Sequence record: PQ850613.1
From: Escherichia phage KarlSchell_Bas89
Strand: one strand, 5' to 3'
Length of the DNA: 64,000 bases
Below the pieces are notes generated by a model. That model did not search any database. It was not told where the DNA came from and saw nothing but the letters and a program-made list of their open reading frames with translations. Positions within the stretch are counted from its first letter, which is position 1. Every line of letters starts with the position of its first letter. This document shows, piece after piece, positions 38,744-49,307 of this stretch. The translations under genes and the position numbers were made by a program.

Positions 38744-38953
38744 TTACTTATAAAAACTTCGAATCATGTCCCAGATTTCTTCCTGCTGGACCCTAAAGAA
38801 AGCTAAACGTGTCGATGTACGTTCAATAAATTCTTCACTATGCTTTTCTCTATCTAGCATACTGACAAGCTTTTCATATTTATTGATCTTCCATCGCATT
38901 TTTAAATAGTCTGATTCTAGTGTCCTTAACCTCTGACACTCAATCAAATCCAT
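38744..38953 (-). CDS. hypothetical protein
   Basis: ORF only. Confidence 0.3.
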   Translation of the reverse strand: MDLIECQRLRTLESDYLKMRWKINKYEKLVSMLDREKHSEEFIERTSTRLAFFRVQQEEIWDMIRSFYK

Positions 38954-39372
38954 CAGTTATCCTCTGACAGATAAAGAGACCAGTCACCAGATTCAACCAG
39001 TTCATCTTGCTCTTCATCAATGTGATAAATCCAAGCAGTGACAGTTTCACCACTATCCAGAACCACTTCGATAGGTGTACGCTTATAGAAAGTGTGTGGG
39101 TTGTCATTACCACGATGCCCTTCCAGCATGTCATAAGCACCCTCAACACCGTCCATGTCAGTTTTAAACACTTCAACACGAACAGGTTTACCGTTACTGC
39201 TGTGTTCCAGAGAAACACTTGGGAAGTATGAACCACCGTAGCGGTACAGGTTGTAGTTTTCTTTAGTGAAACCTTCACCAATCGATTCAGCACCTGCACG
39301 AGCATTCACTCGGAAGTTAGCCTGACCAGTACGAAGAGAACCATAAGTTGCTACATAAATTACTTCTGACAT
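38953..39372 (-). CDS. gamma-glutamyl cyclotransferase-like (AIG2/GGCT family) protein
   Basis: N-terminal YVATYGSLRTG ... RYGGSYFPSV pattern. Confidence 0.45.
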   Translation of the reverse strand: MSEVIYVATYGSLRTGQANFRVNARAGAESIGEGFTKENYNLYRYGGSYFPSVSLEHSSNGKPVRVEVFKTDMDGVEGAYDMLEGHRGNDNPHTFYKRTPIEVVLDSGETVTAWIYHIDEEQDELVESGDWSLYLSEDN

Positions 39373-39443
39373 TTTAAATACCTTTGTTCATTGTTTAGTT
39401 AATCCGAACTAGCCTCCTCTTTCGAAGAAGCTAGAGCAGATTG

Positions 39444-39626
39444 CTATGCTGTGAAGTTTTTGATTACACCGCAAATAACATCTGTTTCAAACGTACCCAC
39501 CAGAACATCGTCTCGGTAGAAGTTAATCGCCTTACCATCTCGGTTAAAGTGATCTGCTTCAATGAGCATAGATTGTACCTGACCATCTGGAGTGGAGGTT
39601 CGAAAGATGACGTTATACTGACTCAT
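39444..39626 (-). CDS. hypothetical small protein
   Basis: ORF only. Confidence 0.25.
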   Translation of the reverse strand: MSQYNVIFRTSTPDGQVQSMLIEADHFNRDGKAINFYRDDVLVGTFETDVICGVIKNFTA

Positions 39627-39865
39627 AAAGAAGTTACTCCCTTATCTTCTTGGGCGATAGAGATGATACGACTCACACACTGCATTGAGTACTCATCACC
39701 ACGCTTTAGGAACGTTACGATAGCAGAGAATTGATTACCAATCATCCGCTCATTTGTAATACCGAACTCTTTGCAGAGTTCTTTCAGTTTGCTACGAGAA
39801 CCAATAATCAGAGGTTCTTTTTCTTCAGTCATTCCACGACTAATCAAATCTTCAATAGACAACAT
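39623..39865 (-). CDS. hypothetical small protein
   Basis: ORF only. Confidence 0.3.
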   Translation of the reverse strand: MLSIEDLISRGMTEEKEPLIIGSRSKLKELCKEFGITNERMIGNQFSAIVTFLKRGDEYSMQCVSRIISIAQEDKGVTSL

Positions 39866-39888
39866 AATTCCATTCCTTGGGGGTTTAA

Positions 39889-46677: not shown

Positions 46678-47144
46678 GCTTTAGTCCAACCTTTATGAGA
46701 TAGATAGTTTTTAAACCTGCCACTGTGAACAGCTCCCATGTGGCCGGGATGTAAGTTGTTATTTCTACAGAAGTCTTTGAGGTTATATATTTTAACAACC
46801 CTTCCTTCTGGAGATTTAAACTTCCAAAATCTAGCATTCCCTTTCACAGCATTATCTTTGCTGGATAGAAGTTGGAAATTGGTGAGACGGTTATTAGTTT
46901 TATCACCATCTATGTGGTCAACTGTCATGCCCTCAGGTATCGGGCCTATAAACAACTCCCACAAGAGCCTGTGTACCAGAAAATTTCTTGTAATCTTTTC
47001 CGGAGCTTGAATGGCAACAAACCTTAAATAGCCATCTTTATCAGGGAATGTTTTCCTACATTTCCCTGTTTTTGCATTAATGATTCTACCGTTTTCAAAT
47101 ACCCGAAAAGTAGAAACACCAACTACTAACTCTCTGTAGTCCAT
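46674..47144 (-). CDS. HNH homing endonuclease
   Basis: VHRLLWELFIGPIPEGMTVDHIDGDKTNNRLTNFQLL. Confidence 0.8.
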   Translation of the reverse strand: MDYRELVVGVSTFRVFENGRIINAKTGKCRKTFPDKDGYLRFVAIQAPEKITRNFLVHRLLWELFIGPIPEGMTVDHIDGDKTNNRLTNFQLLSSKDNAVKGNARFWKFKSPEGRVVKIYNLKDFCRNNNLHPGHMGAVHSGRFKNYLSHKGWTKA

Positions 47145-47171
47145 AAGAAACTGCCAATTAAAAAGATGCGC

Positions 47172-48101
47172 TTAGTCATTATAGTATTCCACCAATTCTT
47201 TAAAGAGGGATATGATTGTTTCTTTGTTGCTCTCCATATTAGAGCCGCAACGACTTTCAATACGTTCTAAGAAACCATTTACATTGATGTTAGAAATCTT
47301 TTCATCAAGAGATGAACGTTTCCAACCAGTGCTCATAGACCAAACTCTCAAAAAGGTACTCATTGAAGAGTACATCTCTGCGTTTTGGTTTCGACGACGA
47401 GCAATACGACGAAGGGCTGCACGGTCATGGTTTCGGATATACCCTGATGTGTTATCACCTTCTCCGACTTTGTTTTGCAACCAAACGTCGGTTGAAAACT
47501 CATCTGTATCGCAAATGATCGGAAGAAATGCAAATGCTGGTAAATCATGCGGTAAATAGATAGATGTTGATTCGTCAGTGGAGTCATTAACTCTGTCAAA
47601 GTTAAGCTCCCCAAAGAAATCCTTACTTACCCCAGCAAGAGCTAGAGCTAATCCAACACGACGACGGAATAGCCATTCTTCTCTATCATCAACTCCCTCT
47701 GAAAGAAAATCCATAGATTCGTACTCGCAATCGAGATAACTACGGAAAGTCATTAGTCCTGTAAAAACTTTATCTGCTGCGTGTTCGCGAAGATCAACCT
47801 CTACGCTATTAGCAGAAGTGATCGTGAACATGTCTTTGTACATAGAACAAGAGTTCAGTACGTCAGCAGTATCCAACAAATGGGACTCAATCTCATCCAT
47901 GTTGCAGTGGGGCCAGTAGTTAATCTTACCCATGTGCGCTGTGAAGTTATCCAAGCTGGTTCGAGTACTTAGGCCGTTAACATCACGAGTGCTGAAGTTG
48001 TGCATAGAGTTGTGGATACCAAAACAAACTCGGCTCGTAAAACTCTGCTCACCCACCATGTCACTAACTTCTACAGGAGCTAATGTTGTGGAAATTGCCA
48101 T
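47172..48101 (-). CDS. hypothetical protein (cluster member)
   Basis: 309-aa ORF, no recognisable motif. Confidence 0.45.
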   Translation of the reverse strand: MAISTTLAPVEVSDMVGEQSFTSRVCFGIHNSMHNFSTRDVNGLSTRTSLDNFTAHMGKINYWPHCNMDEIESHLLDTADVLNSCSMYKDMFTITSANSVEVDLREHAADKVFTGLMTFRSYLDCEYESMDFLSEGVDDREEWLFRRRVGLALALAGVSKDFFGELNFDRVNDSTDESTSIYLPHDLPAFAFLPIICDTDEFSTDVWLQNKVGEGDNTSGYIRNHDRAALRRIARRRNQNAEMYSSMSTFLRVWSMSTGWKRSSLDEKISNINVNGFLERIESRCGSNMESNKETIISLFKELVEYYND

Positions 48102-48113
48102 TGTCTTTAACCT

Positions 48114-49307
48114 TTAATTTCCTAAGAAAAGTTTCGTGAGAATTGAATCCCACTCCGTACTAGGCAGTACATCAAAACTGCTATTATTTGACAGATTCGA
48201 CTGTTGAAAGTGGCGAATCATTGTGTAAGTATTAACACGGTCATTGCCAAATCGAGTATACAACAACTCATTTCGAGTCTTGTCTGATAGGGAAATAGCT
48301 TTGGCAAAAGCTACAATCAGCATAGGCTCTTTGAGGGCACGATCTTGAAGGGCTTCCGGTTGAAGGATAGGTAAGAACATTGAGTTGTTTACATACAGCT
48401 CATGCTCTTCGTGTCCGGGAACGTCATACCAAACACTCTGGTAGTCTTCATCACGAAAATGCCCTTCACCAGCCATGTATGACGGTTGACGCCACACAGT
48501 CTGGCGAGGTTCTGCCATATTAGCTCCGATGCCCACTGTGTATAGTGTTACAGGGAACAGACAGTTGTCGTATTCATTACCAGTAAAGGCAACTCGTACT
48601 TCACCAAACAGGTTCTCTTTTGCGTTAATCAATCGAGAATAAGCAAGAGCTTGTAACGGAGACCAGTTATCCATGTAGAGCTTATCAAGGAAAGTCCACA
48701 CATTTGCTTGTTCGTCTTCTTGATAGAACAGACGGTTCACCATAAGATAGAACAGGCAACGATCAGCAGGAACTGGCTCAGACACATCTTCTGTTACCAC
48801 ACCCATAAAACCTTTTTCATGCCAAACAAGACATGAAGGACGATCTTTATCCATGAAAGCTTCAAGCTCTTCCATAACTGACTTGACAGTTACATCAGGT
48901 CGTTCACGATATTCAGCCCAAAGCTCAACTGCGTTCTTAGGCTTTTCATCCCCTACATCAGCGTAATAGAAAGCATATTGGAAGGAGATGATGTTGTTGC
49001 TCCCATCCTTTCCACGCATAGGGATATGGGTTCCAGAGTTCCAGATAATACGAATATCTTCCATTGACATTAAACTGCTTAGGAGTTCATCGCTGCCAGA
49101 GCTTTGCATCAAGCTATAGCTGCTATCCCAAACATGGACATACTGCGTCCAGCCTTCATTGGCTTCGTAGGTAATGGGGTCGTAATAATCACTATCTTCG
49201 TCACAATCATCACCACCGTGGTAGTTGCTGTGCTGAAGAAAGCCATAGCAAGGAGGCCAGACTGTTACTACATTGTCCTGCTTATCCTGCAATGTTACTG
49301 GAAACAT
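48114..49307 (-). CDS. hypothetical protein (cluster member)
   Basis: 397-aa ORF, no recognisable motif. Confidence 0.45.
   Translation of the reverse strand: MFPVTLQDKQDNVVTVWPPCYGFLQHSNYHGGDDCDEDSDYYDPITYEANEGWTQYVHVWDSSYSLMQSSGSDELLSSLMSMEDIRIIWNSGTHIPMRGKDGSNNIISFQYAFYYADVGDEKPKNAVELWAEYRERPDVTVKSVMEELEAFMDKDRPSCLVWHEKGFMGVVTEDVSEPVPADRCLFYLMVNRLFYQEDEQANVWTFLDKLYMDNWSPLQALAYSRLINAKENLFGEVRVAFTGNEYDNCLFPVTLYTVGIGANMAEPRQTVWRQPSYMAGEGHFRDEDYQSVWYDVPGHEEHELYVNNSMFLPILQPEALQDRALKEPMLIVAFAKAISLSDKTRNELLYTRFGNDRVNTYTMIRHFQQSNLSNNSSFDVLPSTEWDSILTKLFLGN

Follow-up and report, generated by a model that had tools for sequence, protein, structure and literature searches.

The phage amidoligase system was reportedly defined and predicted by comparative genomics by Iyer, Abhiman, Burroughs & Aravind in 2009 (Mol Biosyst), and Pfam family PF14395 carries the name "Phage phiEco32-like COOH.NH2 ligase-type 2." The phiEco32 system is known by prediction only and has never been characterized; a passage of a 2023 paper states that the functions of the module "remain to be explored," and a full-text literature search found no characterized product, in keeping with the earlier note, which spoke of such predictions in phages but of no demonstrated product.

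We analyzed a 64,000-nucleotide stretch of Escherichia phage KarlSchell_Bas89 (PQ850613.1), hereafter the window, a Gordonclarkvirinae coliphage with 97.5% identity to the published phage EP335. An amide-bond gene cluster spans positions 38953-49307 on the minus strand, and by sequence comparison we identify it as the phiEco32-type phage amidoligase module for ATP-driven amide-bond chemistry, already known rather than new. Families, gene order, and phage lineage are alike in the two systems, and phiEco32 gp77-gp88 are one-to-one orthologues of window genes, at 44-86% identity; the window copy differs by two additional HNH endonuclease insertions and in nothing else essential. The genes, starting from the first of the transcription unit, are as follows:

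49319..49681, minus strand: 120-aa protein whose gene opens the transcription unit (phrog_11370, 9e-72)
48114..49307, minus strand: u397, 397 aa, phiEco32 gp88 orthologue (phrog_13063)
47172..48101, minus strand: u309, 309 aa, phiEco32 gp87 orthologue (phrog_13102)
46674..47144, minus strand: HNH homing endonuclease between u309 and the ligase (HNH_3, 4e-18)
45868..46677, minus strand: phiEco32-type COOH-NH2 ligase, glutamine-synthetase (GS)/GCS-like, 269 aa (PF14395, 31.1 bits, cut-off 25; phrog_3815, 1.9e-113)
45244..45858, minus strand: u204, 204 aa, SH3-like beta-barrels
44147..45247, minus strand: Amidoligase_2, the second GS-like ligase, 366 aa (PF12224, 25.4 bits, cut-off 22; phrog_7469, 5.9e-144)
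44076..44105, minus strand: upstream open reading frame of 9 codons (MKGFTLQVD*), read from the sequence
42054..44072, minus strand: class II (Ntn) glutamine amidotransferase, 672 aa, ATT start (GATase_6, 3.5e-14; GATase_7, 1.4e-6)
41534..42043, minus strand: HNH-AP2 homing endonuclease downstream of the amidotransferase (HNH_3, 4.4e-12; AP2, 1.8e-5)
41314..41547, minus strand: DUF7195 protein, 77 aa (PF23825, 1.1e-17)
41109..41342, minus strand: 77-aa protein, phiEco32 gp81 orthologue (58% identity to phiEco32/SU7)
39889..41106, minus strand: RimK-like ATP-grasp ligase, 405 aa, acidic linker, small C-terminal extension (phrog_2599, 1.1e-176)
39623..39865, minus strand: 80-aa phiEco32 gp79 orthologue (73% identity to phi32_79)
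38953..39372, minus strand: GGACT/AIG2-type gamma-glutamyl(amine) cyclotransferase, 139 aa (PF06094, 3e-17; phrog_2520, 1.8e-43)

All of the minus-strand reading frames named in the earlier note are present where it placed them, and its family calls from short motifs (YGSL, EVNTAPG, CGIV/GAFTLIWHD, GIELE/STHVH, and GGHVHIG) are each backed by profile searches. The tight packing that it described is borne out by three 4-nt overlaps (45244-45247, 46674-46677, and 39623-39626), both of its interrupting endonucleases match HNH_3, and its three unknowns of 204-397 aa, namely u204, u309, and u397, indeed have no match in Pfam, NCBIfam, or PDB sequences. The site of the HNH gene at 46674..47144 is empty in EP335 and occupied in SU7, and that of the HNH-AP2 gene is likewise empty in EP335.

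Gene order and distribution of the module

The module is annotated in ~100 close relatives, and its gene order is constant beside primase/helicase genes in Kuravirus, LUZ24-like, 7-11-like, Zobellviridae, and other phages. The PF14395 ligase is its signature gene, and relatives of this ligase were found in 316 phage records and 544 IMG/VR contigs. Among 100,044 cellular species genomes, the family had 22 matches, most of them in metagenome-assembled genomes and none on a contig longer than ~50 kb; the module is thus almost entirely restricted to phages. The IMG/VR loci analyzed (n = 80) share one order, counted from the ligase at position 0 (80 loci): u204 at +1 (71), Amidoligase_2 at +2 (77), the amidotransferase at +3 (79), and the ATP-grasp enzyme at +4 (74). 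Since this order repeats across 80/80 viral loci, the clustering is not due to chance. Annotated Bruynoghevirus, Vicosavirus, Grimontviridae, Zobellviridae, phiM6, and cyanophage genomes show the identical order, and the hosts range over Enterobacteria, Pseudomonas, Vibrio, rhizobia, and cyanobacteria.

The cyclotransferase is present in 45-46 of the 80 loci and Peptidase_C26 in 29, and the two are nearly mutually exclusive: 41 loci have GGACT alone, 24-25 have C26 alone, 4-5 have both, and 10, including Privateer, have neither within reach. Because both enzymes cleave gamma-glutamyl bonds, their alternation argues that gamma-glutamyl removal is an obligatory step. To some extent, this alternation and that of C26 with u309 may be a matter of lineage and not of function.

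The smaller genes differ in their ties to the module. DUF7195 is the best-conserved cluster protein (86-91% identity to phiEco32/SU7); it was detected in 20 loci and directly follows the amidotransferase in 19 of them. Its positional equivalents in DL54 and Privateer likewise match PF23825, and we regard it as a small conserved component of the module. No family match was found for the gp81 orthologue. The 120-aa protein (86% identity to phiEco32 gp89) is confined to Gordonclarkvirinae, and just upstream of its gene lies a terminator-like hairpin (49883-49866), at the place where SU7 has an annotated terminator. The gp79 orthologue probably stands outside the enzyme system; phiEco32 gp79 is reported to inhibit the host RNA polymerase (Savalia et al. 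2008). In BLAST comparisons, the Bruynoghevirus, Grimontviridae, Zobellviridae, phiM6, and cyanophage loci yielded no relative of the gp79 orthologue.

The enzymes and their partner proteins

Each ligase retains its catalytic residues. In the PF14395 ligase, 26 residues do not vary among 10 phage groups, H143 and H145 (H-x-H), E201, and R203 being some of them, and Amidoligase_2 keeps E31, E33, and E35 (E-x-E-x-E), H95 and H97 (H-x-H), E186, and R188; no solved or characterized close relative was found for either GS-like ligase. In the ATP-grasp enzyme, E242, N244, and the APG motif are invariant. Its best sequence relatives are the RimK/MptN/CofF alpha-L-glutamate ligases: a family profile built from 10 sequences matches solved RimK structures (2.6e-8), with D-Ala-D-Ala ligases second-best. 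The window enzyme differs from these relatives in its entirely different genomic context, in an extra C-terminal extension (matching phrog_20552), and in scores far under the family cut-offs in NCBIfam (MptN, 1.8e-8; rimK_fam, 2.9e-6; RimK score 26.8 vs. a cut-off of 143). Its single-sequence Pfam matches (Dala_Dala_lig_C, 1.3e-3; RimK, 9e-3) are below the gathering cut-off.

The amidotransferase, which weakly matches GlmS and PurF, was called mechanically from a GTG at 43937 as a 627-aa protein. The 672-aa form with an N-terminal cysteine, as given in the earlier note, needs an ATT start at 44072-44070, immediately 5' of TGT; this start is supported because 62 of 75 homologues begin M-C-G and the ATT context is kept across the subfamily. 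The catalytic motifs (C1-G, RG..TG, GH.R.AT.G, NAHPF, HNGTL, and VDS) are conserved, while residues 200-480 are only weakly so and the lineage-specific Cys-rich C-terminus (residues 480-672) occurs in <20% of homologues, among which no conserved synthase domain was found. The 9-codon upstream reading frame stops 3 nt 5' of the ATT, and the ~45-nt leader does not vary among phiEco32, SU7, ECBP2-like, NJ01-like, and KBNP1711 phages and is almost unchanged in Aeromonas phage BUCT695.

The three remaining proteins fall into two kinds. The confident structure model of u204 consists of SH3-like beta-barrels and matched no enzyme-like fold; together with its constant position next to the PF14395 ligase, this predicts that u204 is a non-catalytic, obligate partner of that ligase. 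By profile comparison, u309 belongs to a wider, diverged, fast-evolving family encoded just upstream of the PF14395 ligase: hhalign against the family of the -1 gene in 21 metagenomic loci gave a probability of 91.7% (E 7.9e-7), with the motifs CF[GA], PAD, and GY.R in common. Its invariant residues are C26, G28, R120, R146, Y221, and R223, and its AlphaFold2 model is poor (pLDDT 57). The u397 protein, whose BLAST-level relatives are confined to Gordonclarkvirinae, is probably a distant paralogue of u309, and its profile has weak reciprocal HMM matches with the second upstream gene of Grimontviridae. Its identity to phiEco32/SU7 is 44-46%, vs. 79-81% for the neighboring ligase; u309 and u397 together diverge faster than the enzymes (44-51% vs. 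66-81%).

Likenesses to known chemistry and candidate acceptors

Some known biochemical systems resemble the module in part. Butirosin biosynthesis uses gamma-glutamyl protecting-group chemistry, in which the ATP-grasp ligase BtrJ is paired with the AIG2-like cyclotransferase BtrG that takes the gamma-glutamyl group off the amine; the window shares this pair of enzyme types but lacks an acyl carrier protein, PLP decarboxylase, and monooxygenase, and has two GS-like ligases and an amidotransferase instead. The Puu gamma-glutamyl-polyamine pathways, like relatives of the module, combine a GS-superfamily ligase (PuuA) with a C26 hydrolase (PuuD), whereas the window has PF14395 and PF12224 rather than a type I GS, GGACT for C26, and no oxidase or dehydrogenase. 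Pupylation shares with the module a pair of paralogous GS-superfamily enzymes on either side of a small non-catalytic protein, along with an Ntn-fold enzyme in the vicinity; however, the window has no PafA/Dop match, no disordered tag ending in Gln/Glu, and no proteasome or AAA ATPase.

We tentatively favor a non-DNA primary amine as the acceptor, on which a gamma-glutamyl-type amide or peptide would be assembled stepwise with ATP and trimmed. PF06094 is the gamma-glutamylamine cyclotransferase family, and membership in it points to an alkyl-amine acceptor. Such an acceptor might be a small amine or peptide-like metabolite, at somewhat less than an even chance; a protein is a less probable acceptor, a cell-wall precursor an improbable one, and DNA or a nucleotide more improbable still. 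Against the small-molecule reading, a universal, non-catalytic u204 and fast-evolving accessory proteins would be at least as fitting for a target that is a protein.

A somewhat doubtful alternative is post-translational peptide tagging, in which the ligases would place glutamate or a short gamma-glutamyl peptide on a protein of the phage or its host, at a lysine or a C-terminal carboxylate; candidate targets include a defense protein, ribosomal protein S6, and proteins of the replisome. In such a scheme, loosely like RimK or PafA/Dop-Pup, u204 would be a targeting adaptor or substrate and GGACT or C26 an eraser. The known substrate of GGACT is the gamma-glutamyl-epsilon-lysine isopeptide, among solved structures the ATP-grasp enzyme is closest to the RimK protein glutamylases, u204 carries an invariant K109-G110 in an exposed loop together with conserved basic residues, and the rapid divergence of u309 and u397 is expected of parts contacting a variable host partner. 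However, three ligases and an amidotransferase exceed the machinery of known tagging systems, the RimK score is far under its cut-off, profile searches gave no PafA/Dop-family match in the window, and none of the conserved small proteins has a conserved C-terminal Glu or Gln.

Modification of a cytoplasmic peptidoglycan precursor or another envelope precursor, which would alter the wall of the infected cell, perhaps for superinfection exclusion or lysis timing, is improbable. The peptidoglycan stem peptide has a gamma-linked D-Glu that MurT/GatD, a ligase and an amidotransferase, amidate as a pair, and the enzyme that makes D-Ala-D-Ala is of the ATP-grasp type; both favor this reading, as does the second-best profile match of the ATP-grasp family. 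The idea is also credited to Iyer et al. 2009, for phiEco32, in a passage of the 2023 paper. Yet the conserved genes of the module include no Mur-ligase, transpeptidase, flippase, or membrane protein, and the module adjoins replication rather than lysis or envelope genes and occurs in phages of very diverse hosts, from Enterobacteria to cyanobacteria.

Equally improbable is a catabolic, host-takeover role, draining or rewiring glutamine, glutathione, gamma-glutamyl, or polyamine pools for nucleotide synthesis with no new product. GGACT and C26 are degradative, several genome papers count both the amidoligase and the amidotransferase among auxiliary metabolic genes, and in cyanophage Lbo-JY46 the module adjoins PncB and PrsA; but three ATP-consuming ligases in fixed order with a dedicated non-catalytic partner are a biosynthetic signature, and since PF14395 is all but absent from cellular genomes, the pathway was not borrowed from a host.

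DNA or nucleotide hypermodification, with an amino acid or amide on a base or dNMP, which the earlier note had left open, is unlikely, the chances being slim. It could explain the restriction resistance of Gordonclarkvirinae, given 10 GAATTC and 24 GATATC sites kept in the window, and the constant neighborhood of primase/helicase and DNA polymerase genes also favors it, but strong palindrome avoidance may partly account for that resistance, and native-vs-amplified nanopore sequencing of Pseudomonas phage Rembedalsseter, which has the complete module, found no modification motifs according to its authors. CmoX/CmoY offer a precedent for an ATP-dependent amide ligase on DNA, in the CmoA/CmoX/CmoY hypermodification to 5-carboxymethylcytosine-glycine, and some CmoY relatives have a glutamine-hydrolyzing domain (Nat Commun 2025, PMC12783734); yet CmoY is AsnB (asparagine synthetase)-like, neither GS-like nor ATP-grasp, and requires CmoA and CmoX for its carboxyl handle, and the window lacks all three, as well as any hmU/hmC synthase or DpdA; no gene in it was found for installing a carboxyl or hydroxymethyl handle on a base. 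ThyX and dCTP deaminase in the window indicate ordinary dTMP supply, which also counts against a DNA acceptor.

A proposed gamma-glutamyl pathway

With family memberships, catalytic motifs, fixed order, phage restriction, and GGACT/C26 alternation as the established frame, we infer the reaction order, substrates, and acceptor of the favored gamma-glutamyl pathway. The PF14395 ligase and Amidoligase_2 would each couple a carboxylate, most likely (by family analogy only) the gamma-carboxyl of glutamate, to an amine by way of an acyl-phosphate; u204 would assist the former without catalysis of its own, as an adaptor or by presenting the substrate. The RimK-like enzyme would add a further amino acid, probably glutamate, to the terminal carboxylate. 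Through its N-terminal cysteine, the amidotransferase would hydrolyze glutamine and pass ammonia to a partner ligase, which would amidate a carboxylate; alternatively, it may hydrolyze a gamma-glutamyl amide, as EgtC does. GGACT would release the gamma-glutamyl group as 5-oxoproline, a step for which a PuuD-like C26 hydrolase appears to substitute in other phages, and u309, u397, and DUF7195 may be accessory subunits. The 10/80 loci with neither trimming enzyme within reach speak against this scheme, and the constant adjacency to replication genes stays unexplained by it. The pathway as proposed would be cytoplasmic, multi-enzyme, and co-expressed with replication genes. In two independently evolved Bruynoghevirus lines, missense changes arose in both the amidoligase and the amidotransferase of each line, which argues that the module is under selection.

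Gene content of the module and translation of its amidotransferase

All ORFs that the earlier note had listed at 38953-49307 were found on the minus strand, as were the two HNH endonuclease genes and the 4-nt overlaps it had described. Aligned with Escherichia phage EP335 (Nieuwekanaalvirus, Gordonclarkvirinae), the 10.4-kb region shows 97.5% identity across 90% of its length; identity to KBNP1711 is 96.5%, and ~95 additional records from coliphages of the phiEco32/Kuravirus group match it at roughly 74-76%. The 10% lacking an EP335 match is largely made up of the two HNH genes, which are missing from that phage. 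The genes considered here are as follows.

38953-39372, minus strand: GGACT, the AIG2-type gamma-glutamyl(amine) cyclotransferase, 139 aa (PF06094 3e-17; phrog 1.8e-43)
39623-39865, minus strand: phiEco32 gp79 orthologue, 80 aa, 73% identity, between the ATP-grasp and GGACT genes
39889-41106, minus strand: RimK-like ATP-grasp ligase, 405 aa (phrog_2599 1e-176)
41314-41547, minus strand: DUF7195 protein, 77-aa ORF directly after the amidotransferase
42054-44072, minus strand: class II amidotransferase, 672 aa (GATase_6 3.5e-14, 53.4 bits)
44147-45247, minus strand: Amidoligase_2 (PF12224), the second GS-like ligase, 366 aa (25.4 bits vs cut-off 22; phrog_7469 5.9e-144)
45244-45858, minus strand: u204, a 204-aa protein
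45868-46677, minus strand: PF14395 ligase, 'Phage phiEco32-like COOH.NH2 ligase-type 2', 269 aa (31.1 bits vs cut-off 25; phrog_3815 1.9e-113)
47172-48101, minus strand: u309
48114-49307, minus strand: u397
41534-42043 and 46674-47144, also 38215-38706 and 33547-34071: HNH endonucleases, two of them absent from EP335

The profile searches proposed in the earlier note upheld its enzyme assignments. Pfam supported the GGACT (63.7 bits against a PF06094 cut-off of 22.8), the amidotransferase, Amidoligase_2 and the PF14395 ligase. The ATP-grasp protein as a single sequence stayed below the Pfam cut-offs, with weak matches to the MptN, RimK and Ddl models; a 10-sequence family profile aligned most of the domain with solved RimK structures (2.6e-8), and the Privateer orthologue exceeded the RimK cut-off (33.7 vs 21), identifying an ATP-grasp ligase. 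The conserved gene order of the phiEco32-type phage amidoligase system, reportedly defined by Iyer et al. in 2009, was found here in a phage genome, and all six tested features of that system are present in the window. Since each of the five enzyme families keeps its catalytic motifs even in very distant phages, the five enzymes are predicted to be active.

Comparison with characterized pathways gave no match. In NCBIfam, the ATP-grasp protein did not reach the cut-offs for RimK, the S6 glutamate ligase (rimK_fam 26.8 vs 143.4; PRK10446 19.3 vs 331), nor did it match a glutathione synthetase, and the GS-like ligases had no NCBIfam match that would indicate glutathione synthesis or a gamma-glutamyl cycle. 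Pfam searches of the window returned neither Gln-synt_C nor Peptidase_C26 (C26), as a Puu-type pathway would call for; no Pup-ligase (PafA/Dop) family was matched among the cluster proteins, and nine of these left the PADLOC models of anti-phage defence unmatched. Longer homologues of the ATP-grasp and amidoligase proteins carry extra domains, which yielded no substrate hints.

The amidotransferase length of 672 aa given in the earlier note was correct, and it requires an ATT start at 44072-44070, immediately 5' of the codon for the N-terminal catalytic Cys; the amidotransferase motifs are conserved. The orthologues of DL54, Privateer, Vp_R1 and three metagenomic relatives start with ATG-TGT and that of phiM6 with GTG-TGT, and an M-C-G N-terminus occurs in 62 of 75 homologues. 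On the minus strand at 44070-44105, the ATT lies 3 nt past the TAG that ends a conserved 9-codon uORF (MKGFTLQVD*). The ~45-nt leader, with a small hairpin and a GGTGGA Shine-Dalgarno sequence, is invariant in all three Gordonclarkvirinae genera; that of Aeromonas phage BUCT695 is almost identical, and other relatives use ATG. This conserved arrangement of uORF and ATT suggests that the amidotransferase is translated by termination-reinitiation or at a regulated low level. The original phiEco32 record uses the ATT start. Public annotation errors were noted in EP335 (NC_070979) at 8800-10644 and 10893-11993, where the amidotransferase annotation begins at an internal start, giving 614 aa without the catalytic Cys.

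Upstream, in the amidoligase-amidotransferase intergenic region (44110-44150, minus strand), the arms of the first hairpin read GGGTGCC...GGGGCAC in the window and phiEco32 and GGGCGC...GGGCGC in SU7 and ECBP2; these compensatory changes between genera hint at a conserved RNA structure. The C-terminal region of the amidotransferase was considered as a conserved synthase domain and rejected, being poorly conserved. Because the homologue alignment contained no conserved acceptor domain, the enzyme probably works for a partner ligase or is itself an amidohydrolase.

Distribution and gene order

We then assessed how widely the module occurs. A tblastn search recovered 316 phage records with a relative of the PF14395 ligase, among them Pseudomonas Bruynoghevirus (LUZ24, PaP3), Vicosavirus, Grimontviridae (7-11-like phages of Salmonella, Proteus, Aeromonas and Vibrio), Zobellviridae, Sinorhizobium phiM6 and one cyanophage; IMG/VR added 544 loci/contigs. 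The hosts of module phages span Escherichia, Pseudomonas, Vibrio, Aeromonas, Proteus, rhizobia and cyanobacteria. Cellular genomes (one per species, 100,044 species) gave only 22 matches, mostly from metagenome-assembled genomes and all on contigs of no more than ~50 kb, so that the family appears essentially phage-restricted; the bacterial genomic contexts of these 22 were uninformative.

In annotated genomes the order is constant: two ~300-aa proteins, PF14395 ligase, a ~200-aa protein, Amidoligase_2, class II amidotransferase, a small protein, ATP-grasp, GGCT and primase/helicase. When all plus-strand ORFs of 80 IMG/VR loci carrying the PF14395 ligase were clustered, the ligase (80/80, position 0) was accompanied at fixed relative positions by the 200-aa protein (71, +1), Amidoligase_2 (77, +2), the class II amidotransferase (79, +3) and ATP-grasp (74, +4). 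The other frequent neighbours, their identities read from representative sequences without Pfam confirmation, were primase, helicase, DNA polymerase and its exonuclease, a ribonucleotide-reductase-like protein, and proteins with acidic C-terminal tails resembling T7-type SSBs; the two SSB-like proteins had no Pfam match.

Several observations concern the surroundings of the module. In Leptolyngbya phage Lbo-JY46 (2739-7573) it lies directly downstream of PncB, a nicotinate phosphoribosyltransferase, and PrsA, a PRPP synthetase, making a link to NAD or nucleotide salvage possible there. The module and its adjacent replication genes form a hotspot for free-standing HNH endonucleases: SU7 carries one at the same u309/ligase junction as the window, and UFV-P2, Klyazma and phiM6 have them at other module junctions. 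At 34609-35889 in the window, a 426-aa protein, annotated as 'nucleotidyltransferase' in relatives and lacking a Pfam match, adjoins the gene of a separate 3'-5' exonuclease (35890-36438) and is probably the split-off polymerase subunit described for phiEco32 and LUZ24-like phages.

Gamma-glutamyl removal and the accessory proteins

The most informative comparative signal is the alternation of two enzymes. GGACT was present in 45-46 of the 80 IMG/VR loci and a Peptidase_C26/class I amidotransferase-like gene, checked with Pfam, in 29; GGACT alone occurred in 41, C26 alone in 24-25, both in 4-5 and neither in 10. The two families are unrelated, and both cleave gamma-glutamyl amides. Their alternation argues that the pathway would contain a gamma-glutamyl-amine intermediate from which the gamma-glutamyl group has to be taken off. 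BtrJ/BtrG in butirosin synthesis and PuuA/PuuD in gamma-glutamyl-putrescine metabolism follow the same logic. C26 and the u309-like family never co-occurred (0/80), which could reflect functional replacement or merely lineage structure.

In the mechanism we propose, the two GS-like ligases and the RimK-like ligase would build up a gamma-glutamyl-type amide or peptide stepwise on a primary amine at the expense of ATP, after which glutamine-dependent amidation and gamma-glutamyl removal would follow, with u204 as a putative adaptor.

Sequence searches of PDB, Pfam, NCBIfam and PADLOC returned nothing for u204, u309 and u397. The u204 family comprises about 650 clusters at 50% identity, has no Pfam model, and sits directly downstream of the PF14395 gene even on short unrelated contigs; its conserved residues are D6, Y10, G55, R105, K109-G110, R145, K159-G160 and G164, and its alignments are too divergent for locus scanning. 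By BLAST, u309 and u397 have relatives in Gordonclarkvirinae only, and between genera they are 44-51% identical vs 59-81% for the enzymes. Profile methods linked u309 to the position -1 gene of Grimontviridae, where the two upstream genes are paralogues, and of 21 metagenomic loci (hhalign probability 91.7%, E 7.9e-7; common motifs CF[G/A], PAD and GY.R); its structure model was poor. A close paralogy of u309 and u397 was rejected, BLAST being blank and profile links weak.

The most conserved protein of the cluster is DUF7195 (86-91% between genera), which follows the amidotransferase directly as a 72-77-aa protein in Gordonclarkvirinae, Bruynoghevirus and Grimontviridae (equivalents at 12050-12271 in locus L002 and 13776-13997 in L003). 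We considered it as a LysW- or Pup-like carrier, and u204 as a carrier or tag with an acidic C-terminus. Both were discarded: the C-terminal Glu/Gln of a Pup-like tag is unconserved in either protein, and the u204 C-terminus is unconserved outside Gordonclarkvirinae. The 80-aa orthologue of gp79, which we take to be a host RNA polymerase inhibitor, had no BLAST relatives in the other phage groups compared and is probably a passenger.

Candidate targets and significance

What the module modifies was weighed among several readings. Protein tagging is a serious rival and a real, if tentative, possibility, favoured by the RimK similarity of the ATP-grasp ligase, the universal adaptor u204 and the fast evolution of the accessory proteins. 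A bolder proposal, which we consider rather unlikely as a whole, makes the module a new type of conjugation system specific to phages: the two GS-like ligases and ATP-grasp would write a gamma-glutamyl-linked tag that GGACT or C26 erase, SH3-like u204 and fast-evolving u309 and u397 would steer it to a macromolecule of the replication compartment (e.g., a replisome protein, a DNA-bound protein or a polyamine), and such tagging would supply the missing reason why Gordonclarkvirinae broadly resist restriction. A cell-wall role, which a later paper credits to Iyer et al., finds no support among the conserved neighbours and seems quite improbable; a purely catabolic role, a poor match for a set with three ligases and a signature enzyme confined to phages, is just as doubtful.

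The earlier note had also left DNA or nucleotide modification open. The position of the module does speak for it, since replication genes always adjoin, as do the unusually broad restriction resistance of Gordonclarkvirinae, for which no modification pathway is known, and CmoY, an amide ligase recently shown to act on DNA (PMC12783734). However, Pseudomonas phage Rembedalsseter carries the entire module, and nanopore comparison of its native and amplified DNA gave no modification motifs. A handle-installing enzyme is also missing: among the cluster proteins and ten other window ORFs there was no hmU/hmC synthase, CmoX, DpdA or similar, and the scan found only PhoH and the two enzymes below.

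30761-31417: ThyX (Thy1, 1.3e-43)
34040-34594: dCTP deaminase

ThyX and dCTP deaminase indicate a normal dTMP supply, and a thymidylate synthase encoded by the phage itself is not easily squared with the published proposal that deoxyuridine takes the place of thymidine in these phages. Strong palindrome avoidance, relevant to the unexplained resistance, may partly account for it: the window holds 611 6-bp palindromes against about 1070 expected, 14 of the 64 being absent (e.g., CTGCAG, GAGCTC, GGATCC, GGTACC and GTCGAC), with only 3 CCWGG sites and about half the expected GATC; GAATTC (10), GATATC (24) and AAGCTT (29) remain. Taken together, DNA hypermodification by the module is very unlikely.

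The cluster is thus real and was correctly interpreted, and the status of a predicted, uncharacterized module that the earlier note had given it was borne out: a full-text literature search gave only annotation-level mentions, and a 2023 paper describes the functions as still to be explored. The window adds no new system, and its copy is nearly identical to those of published phages; it does sharpen the hypotheses to obligatory gamma-glutamyl removal, a dedicated beta-barrel adaptor and regulated amidotransferase translation. One experimental hint comes from a single Bruynoghevirus, of which two independently evolved lines each acquired missense mutations in both amidoligase and amidotransferase.

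The interest lies not in novelty but in a question that has stood unanswered for 15 years and can now be tested in E. coli K-12, because the BASEL phages Bas86-93 infect this host. The module is among the most widespread phage enzyme sets without a known product, and its carriers include therapy-relevant Bruynoghevirus and Kuravirus phages. Its product, if found, would establish a new element of phage biochemistry and might also explain the resistance of Gordonclarkvirinae to restriction systems.
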